The notes beneath the pieces are model-generated. The model saw nothing but the letters and a program-made list of their open reading frames with translations, ran no database searches and was not told the origin of the DNA. The translations under genes were made by a program, and so were the position numbers. Positions 1 to 7,957 of a stretch of DNA of 64,000 nucleotides are shown here, in pieces. This DNA comes from Escherichia coli (lineage in GTDB: Bacteria; Pseudomonadota; Gammaproteobacteria; Enterobacterales; Enterobacteriaceae): assembly GCF_003334815.1 (NCBI RefSeq), contig NZ_QOWO01000021.1. The stretch is one strand, 5' to 3'. The first letter of the stretch is position 1; each line of letters begins with the position of its first letter.

Positions 1-2
1 GC

Positions 3-140
3 TATGAATATCTGCTGGAGAAGTACAGCTCGCTGGAATCCATTCATACTGAGATTGGCACCAACGAACTTGGCGAGCTGGAAGAGCAAAAAATCTTTAC
101 CGGCGATCTGCTGACACCGTGGCGTAACAGGCGATATTGA
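3..140 (+). CDS. 3' end of an uncharacterized upstream gene (C-terminal 45 codons, truncated by window edge)
   Basis: Open frame from window start to a TGA at 138-140 (translation ...YEYLLEKYSSLESIHTEIGTNELGELEEQKIFTGDLLTPWRNRRY); co-directional with and 67 nt upstream of the helicase gene; frame choice not certain. Confidence 0.35.
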   Translation, partial: YEYLLEKYSSLESIHTEIGTNELGELEEQKIFTGDLLTPWRNRRY

Positions 141-207: not shown

Positions 208-3200
208 ATGGACTTATTTGACCTGTTAACAATTAAATTTACCTTGCCCGCGAAAGCTGCCCCTGTAAGAAAAGTGGGTGGGAATTATGTTCATAAATTA
301 CTTTGCCGATCAACAACAGTATTGGCTCAAGTCAGAAATGCACGTTTCCAAGGATATTTTGAACTTGTTACGGGTCTAAAGCCCCCTCTGGACTATGTCT
401 ATCTGAAAGATCCAAATTCCAGGGGTAAATGCGCAGATGGTGTAGCTTCCCTTAAAGCTAAGGAACCATTTACATTCGAAAAATGGCGAGAAGATACTGA
501 GTTAAGCTGGGAGCAATTTCCAGAGCAGGTAATTAGCACTTCACCTAATGAAATTAATGAACAATGGCATCATCAATTTCAGTTTAGAGAGGACGATCCA
601 GAGCGCAATTCTCCCGGTCTCAGAAAACCCCAACTGGGTGCACTTCATGCAATTGCAGGCTATTTCGCCACTGATTTGCAGGTAGAACCTGCTACCGTCG
701 TACTGCCCACTGGAACGGGAAAAACGGAAACAATGCTGGCTACCATGATATACCAGCGATGCGAGCGAATTTTGCTCATAGTCCCATCTGACTCTCTCCG
801 AACACAGATATCCAAAAAGTTCATCGATTTAGGATATTTGCCAGAGCTAACAGTCGTTCCACCCAACATTGCACTTCCTAATGTCGCCATTATTAAGAAA
901 GGAATTCAGGTAGCGGAAGAAGCTAAGCAATTAGCTTGTGAATCAAACGTCTTGGTTGCTACGACCAGCGTTTTGTCTGCCTGCTCCGAAACAGCATTAA
1001 ATGCACTTTGCGAGTTGTGTAGCCATCTTTTTGTTGATGAGGCTCATCATATCTCAGCCTCATCATGGCAGACAATTCGCAAACGATTTAAAAACAAACG
1101 TGTAGTGCAGTTTACAGCTACCCCTTTTAGGAATGATAAAAAGTCCCTTGGTGGGAAAATTATCTATAACTACACGATGGGGGAAGCCCAACGAGCAGGC
1201 TATTTTACAAATGTAAATTTGCTGCCTGTAGAAGAGTATTACTCTGACCTTATGGATCACGCAATCGCAGATAAAGCTGTTGGCCAACTGCGTATAGACT
1301 TAAATAATGGCCTTGATCATTTGCTTATGGCCCGTACTAGCAATAAGCAGCGAGCAGAAGAAATACTGACTATTTATCAGAATATTGTACCGAACTTTAA
1401 TCCAATCGTTATTCATTCTGATTATCCTAAAACGGAAATAAAAAAACGTCTTAATAAATTATTATCAAGACAATCAAGAATCGTTATTTGCGTAGACATG
1501 TTGGGAGAAGGCTATGACCTACCCAACCTGAAAATTGCCGCTTTGCATGATCACCATAAGTCTCTTGCAGTAACTTTGCAGTTTATTGGCCGTTTTACTC
1601 GTGTCAATAAAGCACAGAAAATTGGTCAAGCTAGTGTAGTCATGAATGTTGCAGACCCTAATGTTGAAGGTGAATTACAGCATCTATATTCAACAGATGC
1701 CGATTGGGATAACGTATTAAGGCGACTCTCTGAAGGACGAATTGCTAGAGAGATTAGGTTGCAAGAGGTCGTGGATGCCTTAAAAAGGAAAGGTGATTTA
1801 CACGATCAGATCTCTCTCTGGAACCTTGAGCCAAGTTGTTCTGTCATGTTATTTAAAACATACTGTGACAATTGGGAGCCTGAAAGATACAAGGAAAAAC
1901 TGCCTAGATTCGATGAATCATGGCATGCAATAGCAGAAGATGAGAATTTGCTTGTTGTGCTAGCTGTCCAGACAACTTCAGTCCGGTGGGGAAACTACAA
2001 AGATCTTAAAGATACCAATTATAAAATTCTAATTGCTCATTGGGATCAAAGCAGATCCGCCTTGTTTGTATTCTCAAATGACTATAAAGCATTCCGGGTT
2101 GAGAATCTGGTTAGTACTATTTGTGATGATAAATTTGAAATTGTCAGTGGTGAAAAAGTTTTTAATGTATTTAATGGTATTGAATATCCTTTAGCAAGAA
2201 ATTTAGGCGCATCCCAAATTGGAGCAATAAGCTTTACTCAATATTTTGGCCCAAATGTCACTGAGGGGCTATCACTAATTGAAGCGTCTCAATCAAGCTT
2301 AAGCAATATTGCTGCATTAGGTTATGAATCCGGAAACCGTGTAATCTGGGGATGCTCGCAACGCAGAGGTAAGGTCTGGTCACCACAAAAAGGGGGTAGC
2401 ATTGCTGATTGGTGCAACTGGGTTAAGAAAACTTGGGACAAAATCTTTAGTTCTGAACCAGATCCAAACAACCTTACGCGTAACTTTTTGCGTCCTGTCC
2501 CATTACTCGAACCCTATAATGAATATCCAATATCAGCTCAATGGGGTGAGTATTTGCTTACTACGTTCGAAGATAAAGTTATTTTTCATTTTGATGCTAT
2601 ATCAGCTCACTTATATTTAGTAGATGTGAAGACTGCTGGAAAGTTTGACGATGGCAATGTGCGGCTCATTTTTTCTACAGATGAAACTTCATCTGAATAT
2701 AAATTATGTCTTACAGGTAGTACTACAGCAAAAGGTTATGCCTATCAGTTGATTTCTGGCCCTGAAGTCTTTGTACAGCGAGGTGAATCTGAACCTGTAT
2801 CACTATCAGAATATATGGAAATTGATCCAGTAATGATTCATTACTCCGATGGCTCATTTTCTTACAACGCTCATATAGTTCATGTAAGCCCAAATATTGG
2901 CCTTTATGACAAAGACGAAATTGTAGCTTTTGATTGGAATGGAACTGATGTTCGACTGGAATCAATGGGCTATACTCGTGATCCATCATCCATCCAGTGG
3001 CGTTGGTACAGTGAAATTAAAGATAATTACGATGTTATTATTAATGACGACGGTAAAGGTGAGTCAGCTGATTTAGTTGGGTTAAGAATAGTTGATGACT
3101 GTATTGTTCTCTCTTTAATTCATTGCAAGTATTCAGGCTCAGAAGAAGCTGGAGCAAGACTTAAAGATCTTTACGAAGTATGTGGGCAGGCACAGAGATG

Positions 3201-3489
3201 CATTCGTTGGAAGCACCTGAATCTTTCCTATTTATACCACCACATTAAGCGGCGCGAGGAACAGTGGCGATCGCTTGGTCATTCTCGCTTTCTAAAAGGC
3301 ACTATAAAAGACCTTGCAGCTATGAAAGAGCGCTCCAGAATCACACCTCTTAAATTCCAAGTTGTTATTGTTCAACCAGGACTTAGAGTAAACAAAATTA
3401 ATGAAGAAGGCCTTAAGTTACTTGGCAGTACGGCCTTATTTATCAAGAAAACAACGATGGCAGACTTAGTTGTTATTGGTTCTAAATAG
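208..3489 (+). CDS. SF2 (ResIII/DEAD-DEAH type) helicase-family ATPase with long uncharacterized C-terminal region (1093 aa)
   Basis: ATG at 208 preceded by AAGAGG at 193-198; Walker A GTGKT (nt 712-726), DEAHH (nt 1036-1050), TATP motif III, QFIGRFTR motif VI (nt 1579-1602); residues ~470-1093 unassigned; AT-rich codon usage. Confidence 0.85.
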   Translation: MDLFDLLTIKFTLPAKAAPVRKVGGNYVHKLLCRSTTVLAQVRNARFQGYFELVTGLKPPLDYVYLKDPNSRGKCADGVASLKAKEPFTFEKWREDTELSWEQFPEQVISTSPNEINEQWHHQFQFREDDPERNSPGLRKPQLGALHAIAGYFATDLQVEPATVVLPTGTGKTETMLATMIYQRCERILLIVPSDSLRTQISKKFIDLGYLPELTVVPPNIALPNVAIIKKGIQVAEEAKQLACESNVLVATTSVLSACSETALNALCELCSHLFVDEAHHISASSWQTIRKRFKNKRVVQFTATPFRNDKKSLGGKIIYNYTMGEAQRAGYFTNVNLLPVEEYYSDLMDHAIADKAVGQLRIDLNNGLDHLLMARTSNKQRAEEILTIYQNIVPNFNPIVIHSDYPKTEIKKRLNKLLSRQSRIVICVDMLGEGYDLPNLKIAALHDHHKSLAVTLQFIGRFTRVNKAQKIGQASVVMNVADPNVEGELQHLYSTDADWDNVLRRLSEGRIAREIRLQEVVDALKRKGDLHDQISLWNLEPSCSVMLFKTYCDNWEPERYKEKLPRFDESWHAIAEDENLLVVLAVQTTSVRWGNYKDLKDTNYKILIAHWDQSRSALFVFSNDYKAFRVENLVSTICDDKFEIVSGEKVFNVFNGIEYPLARNLGASQIGAISFTQYFGPNVTEGLSLIEASQSSLSNIAALGYESGNRVIWGCSQRRGKVWSPQKGGSIADWCNWVKKTWDKIFSSEPDPNNLTRNFLRPVPLLEPYNEYPISAQWGEYLLTTFEDKVIFHFDAISAHLYLVDVKTAGKFDDGNVRLIFSTDETSSEYKLCLTGSTTAKGYAYQLISGPEVFVQRGESEPVSLSEYMEIDPVMIHYSDGSFSYNAHIVHVSPNIGLYDKDEIVAFDWNGTDVRLESMGYTRDPSSIQWRWYSEIKDNYDVIINDDGKGESADLVGLRIVDDCIVLSLIHCKYSGSEEAGARLKDLYEVCGQAQRCIRWKHLNLSYLYHHIKRREEQWRSLGHSRFLKGTIKDLAAMKERSRITPLKFQVVIVQPGLRVNKINEEGLKLLGSTALFIKKTTMADLVVIGSK

Positions 3490-3584: not shown

Positions 3585-4907
3585 ATGATCCTATTCTTTT
3601 ATCCCTACATAATGCTTTGCTATAGCGCTGGATACGCTTTATTGCAAACACTGGATGGGATGGGTGTGATTAGTACCAACTTTGTAGAAATGAACGCACA
3701 GGGTGCTCTTTTGAGCAGTTACTGGTCTCCCAATAAAGTTGCTGTAGTCTTAGGAGGATGTTTTCTTGAGCTCTTTATTTTATTATTACCTTTTGTTTTC
3801 TTGAGCTCATGGATACTTGCCAGAAAAAAGGGACTCATCATTTGTTTTGTTCTTCTTATAACCCCTGGCCTATTATCGCTCTGTCACCTTCTTCCTGCTA
3901 TCCAGTGGTTGCCATTGACCTATGAAATAGGAGGTACAGGTGCAACAGGTAACGCAGCTGGACTCGGAAGTCTTAGCTTCATAGGGCTATTGAGTGGTTG
4001 GATTTTGGCAGTAATCATTAGTGATATTTTTGCTACAGGAGAGAAATTCAGACAGTGGACAGATATTTTCCTAATACTGACAGCAGTTGGAAACGGTCTT
4101 TTCTGGGTATCAGACAGAGAGGTGGCTGTCGGTAAAACCGCATATGAGAAAACAATTACGGATATTAATGATGCAGCCAAATACCTTCTTTTTCAGGTGA
4201 AAGACTACAGCCGCATGTGTGACAATAACGGGCTTACCGAAATGTCATCTTGTCAGTGGGCATCGTACATTCAAGAAACGCTAGAAAATATTGCCAGTAC
4301 AAAATCATCTGTTATTGAATATGTAATACCTGAAAATCTTGACACCTTCTACCGAATTCCTGAGTACTATAGCAATCAAGTATCTCCAGATAAAATCAGA
4401 CAGGAATTTCAAGACTTCAATAAAAAACTATGCCCAAATAAATCTCTTTCCAAAACAATAACACAATTGCCATCACCTTCTCGATGGTGCCAGACCCCAC
4501 CCCCAGCTTACTGCAATGCCATTCAAGAGGGAAAATATAAAACAGGCATGTCAGACCGTTTCGCTGTCGCCAATGAGTGTGTAACTACATCATTATTAAG
4601 GTACCGCCAAGTTTTATTAAAAGAACAAGCTCGTTTATCCTTAAGTAAAAATGCCCCTCATTATAGATGGATGTGGTTTATTGCTATGTCTTTTTTTATT
4701 GGAGGGAAAATTGCCAATGTAATGACAAAAATAGGTAATGTAGAGAATCGTCTCATAACTGAGAAACATAGAGTTAAATTCATCCTTCTAAAAACATGTG
4801 GTTTTATTGTGCGTACATTAATAAGATGTGCCATCTTATTTCGGAAAGTGTTTTTTTCAACGATCAATTATATCAAAAGATTGAAGAAAATAAAGCATGA
4901 TACTTAA
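3585..4907 (+). CDS. Putative polytopic membrane protein, function unknown (440 aa; start codon uncertain)
   Basis: 1.3 kb ORF in AT-rich DNA; N-terminal half has several hydrophobic helix-length segments, one more near C-terminus; 95 nt downstream of helicase gene, same strand. Confidence 0.55.
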   Translation: MILFFYPYIMLCYSAGYALLQTLDGMGVISTNFVEMNAQGALLSSYWSPNKVAVVLGGCFLELFILLLPFVFLSSWILARKKGLIICFVLLITPGLLSLCHLLPAIQWLPLTYEIGGTGATGNAAGLGSLSFIGLLSGWILAVIISDIFATGEKFRQWTDIFLILTAVGNGLFWVSDREVAVGKTAYEKTITDINDAAKYLLFQVKDYSRMCDNNGLTEMSSCQWASYIQETLENIASTKSSVIEYVIPENLDTFYRIPEYYSNQVSPDKIRQEFQDFNKKLCPNKSLSKTITQLPSPSRWCQTPPPAYCNAIQEGKYKTGMSDRFAVANECVTTSLLRYRQVLLKEQARLSLSKNAPHYRWMWFIAMSFFIGGKIANVMTKIGNVENRLITEKHRVKFILLKTCGFIVRTLIRCAILFRKVFFSTINYIKRLKKIKHDT

Positions 4908-5425
4908 ATAGAATAGTGACAAACACTCAATTGCAAGGTCATTCTTTGTGTTGAATGAATAAAGAACAAGGGGTACTTTCTCCTGTACCCTTGGAGTTTA
5001 TATTAGATAATACATCTGAATCTACTCTGGTGATTCACACTAGCGGCAATAGTGTTTTGTACTCAACCGTTTATACAATAGCATCCATGACTAATTGAGC
5101 GTAGAGTTCAGTAAGCTTATTAATTATCCACTTATTGAAAGAATTCGTGGAACGCTCTTACCGATAAAATCAGTGAATGTATTGCTCTTGGTGATAATGC
5201 CATTGGGAAAAATTACCAACCAGCCATCCCATTAAGGCTAGCCGATTAACTTTAATTGAATCGCCACGGATTTGGCAAACAATTCACATGTCTCTACTAC
5301 GCTTGATTTTTTCGTAGTATAACAGCGTAACCCTTTTTCTCCCGGTTTACATACAAGAAACCTGTTCATCATTGCTGATGAAGATATATGCTGCCCTTAC
5401 ACGATAATTGTTTAGGATAGTAACA

Positions 5426-6391
5426 ATGCCTTTAGATTTAAGTAACACTTTAGTGATTGGCATCAGCGCGACTGCGCTTTTTGATATGAGTGAATCCGAT
5501 CGCATGTTTTGCGAAACCTATGCGACCGATCCTGATAGCGCCATTGAAAAATACCGCGCCTATATGCTGGAGCACGAAAACCAACCTTTACAGCCCGGAA
5601 CAGGCTACCCTTTAGTCAAAGCGTTGCTGGGTCTGAACCAGTACCGTCAACCGGATGATAAATCACCGTTGGTTGAAGTCGTTGTGATGTCACGTAACAG
5701 CCCTGATACAGGTATCCGCGTTCTGAATACTATTCGCCATGACAGGCTCGATATCACGCGCTCTGCCTTTACAGCAGGCGAAACTGTTGCTGATTACCTT
5801 GATGCCTTTGATGTGGATCTGTTTTTAACAACTAACGTTGAAGATGCGCAAAAGGTGATTGATTCCCGATTCTGCGCCGCTGCAATCCTGAAAGATCCGC
5901 CTTCTGACGCATCTGATATCCCGGAAGGGCAAGTGCGCATTGCTTTTGACGGCGACGCGGTACTTTTTTCCGATCAAAGCGAACTGGTTTATAAGACCCA
6001 AGGAATGGTTGCCTTTCATGCTCAGGAAGACGCGCAGCAGGATATCCCTATGGAAGAGGGGCCTTATGCCACTTTGCTAAAAAAAATAGCCAAGCTTCAG
6101 GAACGATTGCCGACCCGCGTTGAGTATTCTCCTGTTCGTATTGCATTGGTGACAGCCCGAAATAGCCCTTCGGAAATGCGCGTTATTAAAACGCTAAGAA
6201 GCTGGGGGGTATATGTCGATGAAGCTTTTTTTCTTGGCGGCGTAGAGAAAACAAAAGTTCTGAAGGCATTTAAACCACACATTTTCTTCGACGATCAGGA
6301 TGTGCATTTAAATACAGCTGCAAAGGTTGTACCTTCCGGGAAAGTACCTTATGCCAGTAACTCCGAACTGGCAGAGCGTGAAGCATCGTAA
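5426..6391 (+). CDS. HAD-like 5'-nucleotidase-family protein (putative)
   Basis: ORF with AGGA 8 nt upstream of ATG 5426; two internally similar halves each with an Asp-rich segment (LFDMSESD and IAFDGDAVLF) and C-terminal FFDDQD resembling HAD phosphatase motifs; family assignment from recollection. Confidence 0.65.
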   Translation: MPLDLSNTLVIGISATALFDMSESDRMFCETYATDPDSAIEKYRAYMLEHENQPLQPGTGYPLVKALLGLNQYRQPDDKSPLVEVVVMSRNSPDTGIRVLNTIRHDRLDITRSAFTAGETVADYLDAFDVDLFLTTNVEDAQKVIDSRFCAAAILKDPPSDASDIPEGQVRIAFDGDAVLFSDQSELVYKTQGMVAFHAQEDAQQDIPMEEGPYATLLKKIAKLQERLPTRVEYSPVRIALVTARNSPSEMRVIKTLRSWGVYVDEAFFLGGVEKTKVLKAFKPHIFFDDQDVHLNTAAKVVPSGKVPYASNSELAEREAS

Positions 6392-6582: not shown

Positions 6583-7344
6583 TCACTGTACCACTCCACC
6601 ATCATTTACCGCACCGGAAACTACCACACGCATATTTTCATCCAGGTCAATCGAACCGCGATCAAACGCTTTATGATGGATTGCGCACAATGCCAGGCCA
6701 TTAGGTACTTCACAAGGGCCATGGTGCTGTTTCCATCTGATATGAGCAGCTTCCAGAGCAATCGGCGCATTGTCGTGGCGCATGTTAAAGCCGCAGATAG
6801 CGCACTGATAATTGTAAGCATGTAGCACCATCTGGCGAAACTTCGGATCGCGTTGACGAAGAGAGGTGCGAATATCAAAACTCCTCTCGTCAGCTATCTC
6901 TTCCTGAATACTGGCCGGGAAATGCGCCTCCAGGAGCTGCTGCGCCAGCGTATCAATTAACCTGTAATTTTTTTCCACCAACGCAAAATTATCGGCATCA
7001 AATCCACCAGCGACATTATATTCAATGAGTTCACGTCGGGGCGGCTGGCGGCTACCACTGGTTGAGCACAGTTCCGCGTTATGTAGTTCCCAGAAGCCAT
7101 CGCCCTTCAGACGCCAGAACGGCATGTCCGGGCGCTGGTCACGGCGCTGCGGTCCATAACGTTCCAGGAGATCCAACAGGGGCTCGTAGATTTCAGAAGC
7201 ATAGTTAAACAGGCGACCATGACTCTGCCGATAGTGTGAGAGAACGTACAGCAGCAATAATGGCTTATGTGGCGCACGTTGTTCACCTTTGCGCCAGATG
7301 GTGATATTTGATATCGCTTGCTTTAGGGTTTTGTCAGAGGTCAT
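6583..7344 (-). CDS. HNH endonuclease-family protein with uncharacterized N-terminal domain
   Basis: C-terminal HNH signature (YQCAICGF ... AAHIRWKQHHG ... NGLALCAIHHKAFDRG); start could be ATG 7344 or upstream TTG 7389. Confidence 0.75.
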   Translation of the reverse strand: MTSDKTLKQAISNITIWRKGEQRAPHKPLLLLYVLSHYRQSHGRLFNYASEIYEPLLDLLERYGPQRRDQRPDMPFWRLKGDGFWELHNAELCSTSGSRQPPRRELIEYNVAGGFDADNFALVEKNYRLIDTLAQQLLEAHFPASIQEEIADERSFDIRTSLRQRDPKFRQMVLHAYNYQCAICGFNMRHDNAPIALEAAHIRWKQHHGPCEVPNGLALCAIHHKAFDRGSIDLDENMRVVVSGAVNDGGVVQ

Positions 7345-7463
7345 TGCGTTGAAGAATCCATGAGCATATGTTTGCGATGATGCTCGCAACTATATGTATA
7401 TTCAAGGCATTATTGCAGACATCCTTTTTGCCTGACGGCTCTGTACCTGGCAGATGGAATTCT

Positions 7464-7780: not shown

Positions 7781-7957
7781 TTACCTCTTAAACCATTCCT
7801 TACCATTTTCATGTCTTCGATAAGAAATCTTCATCATGCATGATCGATTTTGTCTATCTATTCGATCGAATTTTTTCTTTTTACCCTGTCTTTTGCATGG
7901 TTTTAAAATAAGCAACCTTCTTTATCGGGTGGGTAAGAACCAACGGAGATGATTGAA

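Follow-up and report, generated by a model that had tools for sequence, protein, structure and literature searches.

The stretch of DNA analysed here, called the window, comprises 64,000 nucleotides (nt) from Escherichia coli (contig NZ_QOWO01000021.1), and close to its 5′ end lies the gene under study, referred to below as the helicase gene (Table 1), the product of which is annotated by NCBI only as a 'DEAD/DEAH box helicase'. The open reading frame (ORF) has an ATG start codon, with a ribosome-binding site, AAGAGG (Shine-Dalgarno), 9 nt 5′ of it. Comparison with a 94.7%-identical E. coli allele gave a ratio of nonsynonymous to synonymous substitution rates (dN/dS) of 0.16 for the gene, indicative of purifying selection.

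The motor of the protein contains Walker A at G169-T173 (in PTGTGKTE; nt 712-726), DEAHH at residues 277-281 (in FVDEAHHIS; nt 1036-1050) and motif VI, QFIGRFTR, at residues 458-465 (nt 1579-1602). Much farther on are the C-terminal stretch NDDGKGESADLVGLRIVDDCIVLSLIHCKYSGSEE, which begins with N946 at nt 3043, and RCIRWKH at residues 997-1003. These positions, as well as the limits of the ORF, had been given in an earlier sequence-only reading of the window, and on recheck all of them were correct. With Walker A, DExH, the motif VI arginines and two RecA-like lobes present, the protein has the hallmarks of a superfamily 2 (SF2) helicase or translocase of the ResIII type, and the motor, which is intact, belongs to the ResIII/HsdR/XPB/Mfd type of SF2, that is, the double-stranded-DNA translocase type.

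A Pfam search of the whole protein returned ResIII at 138-308 (9e-20), DEAD, and Helicase_C at 378-466, and nothing else. NCBIfam, PADLOC and PHROGs gave weak matches restricted to the motor (RadD, HsdR, UvrB, Hef, PbeA and a SauUSI-like mREase_IV), of which the strongest in PADLOC was PbeA (E 9e-9), covering only the helicase core (residues 163-326). Because the library matches are confined to the motor, residues 1-135 and ~470-1093 are blank to profile libraries. Searches of PDB sequences with the protein and with full-length, C-terminal and N-terminal profiles retrieved helicase cores or noise only, and Pfam searches of a 31-sequence C-terminal alignment and of 47 full-length homologues gave no match outside the motor. 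The claim that nothing is recognisable beyond residue ~470 therefore stands for Pfam, NCBIfam, PADLOC, PHROGs and PDB sequence searches, and the first 135 residues, also described as unassigned, likewise had no Pfam (47 members) or PDB sequence match.

The C-terminal domain and its candidate active site

A full-length AlphaFold2 model, calculated from a 47-sequence alignment and having a mean predicted local distance difference test (pLDDT) score of 85, shows six regions: an N-terminal beta-rich region, the RecA lobes, a linker helix, an alpha/beta middle region, a mostly-beta region and a C-terminal alpha/beta region. Judged from this model, the last of these very probably has the restriction-endonuclease (PD-(D/E)xK) fold, and the predicted structure most resembles the domains by which type IIS enzymes (N.BspD6I, FokI) cleave DNA non-specifically. 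The structural relatives, with the figures listed for them, were N.BspD6I (9.9), FokI (9.0), the small subunit of R.BspD6I (8.0), CdiA-CT (EC869 DNase; 7.9), NucS (7.8), AF1548 (7.8), Shedu SduA (7.7), LlaBIII (7.6), Upx (7.5), HamA (7.4), Can2 (6.7), AspBHI (6.7) and Hna (6.4), and below these came Avs4, McrC, Cap4, NucC and many type II enzymes. The order of the core elements is classical: helix 929-940, strand 943-946, strand 956-962, strand 965-973 and helix 983-997.

Residues D955, H972 and K974 were mapped to catalytic positions by secondary-structure register and spacing in the predicted model. D955 directly precedes the second strand, which is the 'PD' position, and K974 is at its canonical position as well; both are invariant, and the D/E position is filled by an invariant His, H972. 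The spacing of 17 residues in D955 ... H972-C-K974-YSGS is the same as in FokI, PD450 ... D467-T-K469-AYSGG. The Q994-A-Q996 segment in the helix that follows (in YEVCGQAQ) is probably part of the active site.

Conservation was evaluated in 47 homologues and then in 76 independent full-length homologues from a genome scan, which are 30-97% identical overall. It was found that D947, D948, G951, E952, D955, H972, K974, Y989, G993 and Q994 are 100% invariant (76 of 76), which equals the invariance of Walker A, DEAH and motif VI, and that Q930, N946, C973, Q996, K1002 and H1003 are nearly invariant in both sets. Even homologues only ~30% identical over their full length retain the pattern, as NDDNSGEVAD...HCKYS...YEVCGQ in Acinetobacter and as DDDGSGEVAD...HCKY...YQVVGQ on a Klebsiella plasmid. 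Within E. coli, the C-terminal domain has a dN/dS of 0.075, the strongest purifying selection of the protein. On this pattern of conservation, D955 ... H972-x-K974, together with D947/D948/E952/Q994, is a candidate active site as invariant as the ATPase motifs.

The sequence-only reading had graded the cluster of acidic, His and Lys residues as a weak pattern match, which understates it, for invariance across 76 homologues is far beyond chance. Among the residues that it had singled out, D947/D948, H972 and K974 are the invariant ones, and D963/D964 lie in columns conserved below 90%; in the R-x5-H pattern of RCIRWKH, H1003 (with K1002) is nearly invariant and R997 is not conserved. As for the proposal of a degenerate PD-(D/E)xK or phospholipase-D-like (PLD-like) site, the former agrees with the model and the fold matches, and the latter is taken up below.

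The N-terminal domain is the most variable part of the protein, with a median identity to the 76 homologues of 23% versus 56% for the motor. Between the two E. coli alleles it has a dN of 0.10 and a dS of 0.44, and because this dS exceeds the 0.08-0.23 of the other domains, the N-terminal segment appears to have been swapped by recombination rather than to have diverged in place. We infer that this domain is a specificity or sensor module. Middle domain 1 contains the conserved motifs GAISFTQYFGPNVTEGL and WGCSQ(R/K)(R/K)GKVWS and has no Pfam match in any of 47 members. The possibility that a middle domain is a second, degenerate copy of the nuclease was rejected, as hhalign comparison among the protein's own domains showed no similarity.

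Table 1. Features of the helicase gene, its product and the surrounding island in the window.
Feature	Residues	Position (nt)	Strand	Remarks
Type I hsdM remnant		1..128	+	Directly 5′ of the helicase gene; NCBI annotation of the identical EC556 region
Helicase gene, whole	1-1093	208..3489	+	1093 aa; WP_028132769.1
N-terminal beta-rich domain	1-135	208..612	+	AlphaFold2 secondary structure
SF2 motor, two RecA-like lobes	138-483	619..1656	+	
Linker with long helix	484-540	1657..1827	+	AlphaFold2: helix 500-527, low pLDDT 494-508
Middle domain 1, alpha/beta	541-730	1828..2397	+	Well conserved
Middle domain 2, mostly beta	731-915	2398..2952	+	Less conserved
C-terminal domain, predicted restriction-endonuclease (PD-(D/E)xK) fold	916-1093	2953..3486	+	
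Acidic loop and 'PD' aspartate, N946-D947-D948-x-x-G951-E952-x-x-D955	946-955	3043..3072	+	Start of strand beta2
H972-C973-K974	972-974	3121..3129	+	End of strand beta3; '(D/E)xK' position, His replacing the acid
Q994-A-Q996	994-996	3187..3195	+	Helix after beta3; invariant or near-invariant
Membrane ORF		3585..4907	+	440 aa; 95 nt 3′ of the helicase gene; at least 4 strongly hydrophobic segments
5′-nucleotidase (NCBI)		5408-6391	+	327 aa
Phosphorothioated-DNA-binding restriction endonuclease family		6583-7389	-	
Outer-membrane protein gene		7949-8698	+	
ORF annotated phosphoethanolamine transferase in EC556		8850-10349	+	
tRNA-Phe		12131-12206		

Distribution and genomic neighbourhoods of the family

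A search with residues 471-1093 found 130 proteins from Gamma-, Beta-, Alpha- and Deltaproteobacteria, Bacteroidota and others; the complete ones are ~1080-1095 residues long and 38-83% identical in that half, and no Pfam domain outside the motor was found in any of the 130. With a profile of the last 179 residues, 1552 clusters (50% identity) were obtained at E<=1e-3 and 334 at E<=1e-30, and in the best 150 clusters the C-terminal domain always ends the protein, which has ~1000-1100 residues where complete. With two peptide patterns from the C-terminal domain, 391 of 100,044 species-representative genomes (~0.4%) were found to contain a relative, a range that reaches Bacillota, Verrucomicrobiota, Planctomycetota, Gemmatimonadota and Cloacimonadota. 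There were 108 plasmid records with a relative (55 near full-length, 61 conjugative), among them plasmids of Rhizobium and Agrobacterium and IncFIB/IncHI1B plasmids of Klebsiella, and 5426 complete E. coli genomes contained 15 full-length copies and one fragment (0.3%). The distribution is sporadic and mobile, in tRNA-linked islands, on conjugative plasmids, and beside restriction and other defence genes. One homologue, annotated 'UvrB', is in a 328 kb record named 'Acinetobacter phage MD-2021a' (CAKLQH020000001.1), where it lies amid paa, leuA and other housekeeping operons, and this record looks like a bacterial chromosome, not a phage.

In the window, the helicase gene is part of an island at tRNA-Phe that has a P4-type integrase. 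Over its first 8 kb, the window sequence recurs without a difference in strain EC556 and in a small number of other isolates from animals. The island contains, in order, pseudogene remnants of type I hsdR/hsdM, the helicase gene, the membrane ORF, the 5′-nucleotidase gene and the gene for a phosphorothioate-DNA-binding restriction endonuclease. The membrane ORF, for which no match was found in Pfam, PADLOC, NCBIfam or PHROGs, follows the helicase gene in all 15 E. coli genomes and in Lonsdalea and is absent from Pectobacterium, Advenella and more distant relatives. As it is confined to the Escherichia/Lonsdalea lineage, it was rejected as a universal conserved partner and is probably cargo in its own right; strain 52F4 carries a second copy of the ORF at another genomic site. 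The 5′-nucleotidase is a full-length match to the PADLOC candidate PDC-S08 (E 1.7e-134). The restriction endonuclease matches NCBIfam NF045808 (1.9e-114) and also a PADLOC HNH model (1.3e-17), and its EC556 counterpart is an NCBI pseudogene with an internal stop. Between the outer-membrane protein gene and the phosphoethanolamine transferase ORF, EC556 has an IS3 insertion that the window lacks.

The neighbours of relatives were examined by calling and clustering ORFs in 89 non-redundant loci with flanks of up to 10 kb; the counts are approximate, because ORF calling and clustering were crude. No universal partner gene of the helicase was found among the 89 loci. The most frequent neighbours were type I HsdM, HsdR and HsdS (16, 14 and 14 loci), followed by an AAA_15 ATPase (NsnB/AriA/HEC-03B-like) in 8 loci, usually paired with a ~300-aa protein and lying on one side of the helicase gene or the other, integrases in 7 loci, and a 542-aa LA2681-like HEPN protein (Pfam 7e-67) in 7 loci of a ~45-53%-identity branch. 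YjiT/YjiV-like giants, PDC-S31 and LmuA-like/MBL genes were each found in 3-4 loci.

In the clade of the window (at least 50% identity), a type I restriction-modification (R-M) system lies beside the helicase gene in 15 loci, the window included, and 11 of these have the order hsdR-hsdM-hsdS-helicase on one strand, with a gap of 6-48 nt between hsdS and helicase. Intact hsdR-hsdM-hsdS operons are present at L012, L014, L015, L017, L019, L023, L026, L027 and other loci. Directly 5′ of hsdR-hsdM-hsdS-helicase, relatives have a gene for a sigma-54 AAA+ activator (PADLOC RtcR_PspF2, 3.5e-140; NCBIfam RtcR, 3e-95), the N terminus of which lies beyond most of the fetched loci. The 29-78 nt gap before hsdR contains the sigma-54 consensus TGGCAC-N5-TTGC(T) at L016 (918-933), L017 (1009-1024) and L027 (1158-1173), and the 31-34 nt that separate the activator gene from hsdR at L019 and L022 contain near-matches. 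This arrangement suggests that the operon of type I R-M and the putative helicase-nuclease is inducible via an enhancer-binding protein. The activator/promoter segment has been deleted in the E. coli window.

The HEPN protein (L057, 10535-12163; also L032, L044, L047, L050, L059 and L061) is encoded directly 3′ of the helicase gene and abuts or overlaps its stop codon in 4 of the 7 loci, so arranged that the two genes may form a two-gene variant of the system. In Roseivirga (L003, 5869-7188), a 190-aa gene comes next after the helicase gene, and beyond it a 439-aa PLDc_2/NgoFVII-like protein is encoded, which is possibly another effector pairing. The 190-aa gene and a 198-aa gene downstream in Geomonas were considered as a shared partner and rejected, as they are mutually unrelated.

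Proposed function and competing explanations

We regard it as fairly probable that the helicase is a stand-alone defence motor-nuclease belonging to a large unnamed family. Its role would most likely be anti-phage or anti-plasmid defence, either as a modification-independent, type IV-like restriction enzyme or as a triggered nuclease like Hna. In the mechanism that we propose, the motor would load on DNA and be driven along it by ATP, selection of the DNA or of an infection cue would fall to the variable N-terminal domain, perhaps together with middle domain 2, and the C-terminal domain would then cut or nick DNA non-specifically. H972 would probably stand in for the second metal-binding carboxylate, either by binding the metal itself or by acting as a general base, and the other metal ligands would come from D947/D948/E952. 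Two molecules may need to meet for cleavage, because double-strand cutting by the closest structural relatives requires a dimer. FokI cuts when two molecules meet, and the type III and type ISP enzymes cut on collision.

Several points weigh against this interpretation. The defence, ATPase and nuclease activities are predictions for every member of the family, and the target-recognition logic is purely inferential, because ~430 middle and 135 N-terminal residues are without an assigned fold. Catalysis is not guaranteed, given that His stands where a second acid would be canonical, although active PD-(D/E)xK enzymes tolerate Q, S or N there (QxK in MspJI/Mrr; SxK with a relocated acid in Cfr10I/NgoMIV). 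An hhalign comparison of the C-terminal profile with the FokI cleavage domain gave no signal (probability 0.1%), and because of this lack of significant similarity the likeness to FokI is at the level of the fold only. PADLOC-DB v2.0.0 contains no model of a catalogued anti-phage system that the helicase matches over its full length, and genes in defence islands are sometimes not defence genes. Targeted literature searches found no paper that names or describes the family and none that mentions the accession; there is no mention of the accession in the DefensePredictor paper and its supplements, some of which were available only in part, and the family is not described in the guilt-by-embedding preprint.

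A bolder interpretation, which we hold to be doubtful, is that the family represents a new ATP-dependent restriction-like class, with a His-containing D...HxK site on a FokI-like domain and a hypervariable N-terminal reader, and that it was ancestrally co-transcribed with type I R-M from a sigma-54 promoter under an RtcR/PspF-like activator. If so, the helicase would serve as a second line behind type I restriction, an inducible nuclease coupled to it in function that might, for instance, finish off DNA or fire upon inhibition of the type I enzyme.

The linkage to hsd genes also raises the possibility, unlikely in our estimation, that the helicase is an accessory of the neighbouring type I R-M system, either an alternative restriction subunit docking on HsdM2S1 or a guard or back-up. 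PrrC, which is associated with EcoprrI and fires when anti-restriction proteins block the type I enzyme, is a precedent for a guard. However, 73 of the 89 loci lacked type I R-M within the fetched flanks. They include the plasmid copies and all of the alphaproteobacterial clade at ~45% identity, and several gammaproteobacterial copies likewise have none nearby. Gene order is also variable, with the helicase gene 5′ of hsdR in Enterobacter (L005) and the AAA_15 pair between hsdS and helicase in Geomonas/Vibrio (L002, L033), and every linked operon already has a canonical HsdR. Furthermore, the type I genes decayed independently in two E. coli islands, leaving only hsdR and hsdM fragments at tRNA-Phe (the window) and an hsdM fragment plus intact hsdS at tRNA-Leu (PK8568; L093, 7490-8988), whereas the helicase gene, which is under purifying selection, and the membrane ORF are intact in both.

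It is also conceivable, but quite unlikely, that the C-terminal domain has a nuclease fold and is inert, serving as a DNA clamp or dimerisation module while killing is done by variable neighbours (HEPN, membrane or PLD-like proteins). The missing acid of the canonical (D/E)xK would fit such a role, as would the candidate effectors found directly 3′ in some loci, namely LA2681-HEPN (7), PLDc_2 (Roseivirga) and the membrane ORF (Escherichia, Lonsdalea). Nevertheless, ten pocket residues are invariant in 76 sequences even though identity over this domain is only ~47%; this set, with four acidic residues, His, Lys and Gln, fits metal/phosphate chemistry, and the purifying selection within E. coli is strongest here. 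The downstream partner, moreover, is never universal, and many loci are without one.

Markedly improbable is a role in DNA repair, recombination or at replication forks, as a helicase-nuclease (compare archaeal Hef and RadD) that serves its mobile element. The gene is rare and patchy, as seen in the frequencies given above, its recurrent neighbours are restriction/defence genes rather than repair or replication genes, its N-terminal domain evolves fast, as is typical of conflict systems, and the NCBIfam RadD, Hef and UvrB scores are far under the cut-offs. A PLD (HKD) nuclease site, suggested by nothing but a local H-x-K with GS after it in the window sequence, can be dismissed as highly improbable, because there is no PLD-fold structural match and the HKD motif, HxK(x)4D(x)6G(S/T)xN, is not conserved beyond HxK (neither its Asp nor the GSxN positions), nor does any of 47 members have a Pfam PLDc match.

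Comparison with known systems

In the reading that we favour, that of a stand-alone defence motor-nuclease, the helicase shares with Hna, HmaA, SauUSI, type III Res and Hachiman the combination of a motor with a PD-(D/E)xK or PLD nuclease. SauUSI (type IV, PDB 7clg) and HmaA are, in addition, single-chain ATP-dependent motor-nucleases in defence. The motor has one of its best sequence matches in SauUSI, but there it is flanked by a PLD nuclease at the N terminus and a DUF3427 reader at the C terminus, neither of which Pfam finds in the helicase, and a SauUSI-like assignment was rejected, as PADLOC mREase_IV matches the motor only (E 1e-5, residues 272-362). HmaA combines a motor of the Snf2 kind with NOV_C, a nuclease in which the D/ExK site is canonical (PMC11232893), and Pfam likewise found neither Snf2 nor NOV_C in the helicase. 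Hachiman is a two-protein system, HamA/HamB, with a Ski2-like helicase and a DUF1837 nuclease, and the helicase has no PADLOC HamA/HamB match.

Type I HsdR has the reverse domain order, with an N-terminal nuclease and a C terminus that binds the methyltransferase, and the scores of the helicase (TIGR00348, 21.4 bits versus a cut-off of 284.55; EcoAI-type, 21.4 versus 550) exclude it from that group. The type IIS enzymes FokI and N.BspD6I/R.BspD6I have no detectable sequence homology to the helicase, their nuclease domain is joined to a sequence-specific DNA-binding domain instead of a motor, and FokI has D467 where the helicase has His. The alignment with type III Res (EcoP15I, PDB 4zcf) covers the motor alone, over 329 residues, and there is no relation in the N-terminal and middle domains. 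Type III Res needs a Mod methyltransferase, whereas no Mod-like partner recurs in the 89 loci; the one methyltransferase that does recur, in 16 loci, is type I HsdM, and identity with type III Res was rejected. Hna of Sinorhizobium meliloti has a DinG/XPD-like SF2 motor and a C-terminal PD-(D/E)xK nuclease (Hooper et al. 2026, PMC13381803), and the helicase was not assigned to it either, having no sequence or full-length structural match.

What had been 620 blank residues can now be described by a testable model, with two unassigned domains after the motor and a predicted FokI-like nuclease fold with a strictly conserved D...HxK, and the family is a candidate single-gene defence system that present-day catalogues lack. 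The His variant, should the protein prove active, would add to the chemistry known for restriction-fold nucleases. A compact, non-specific, motor-coupled cleavage domain could, moreover, appeal to those who engineer enzymes. Because the helicase gene is repeatedly found behind hsdS, with what looks like a sigma-54 promoter in control, it offers a case in which to study the co-regulation of defence genes with type I restriction. With no homology to either beyond the superfamily level, the helicase is best read as analogous to Hna or to the Res subunit of type III enzymes.

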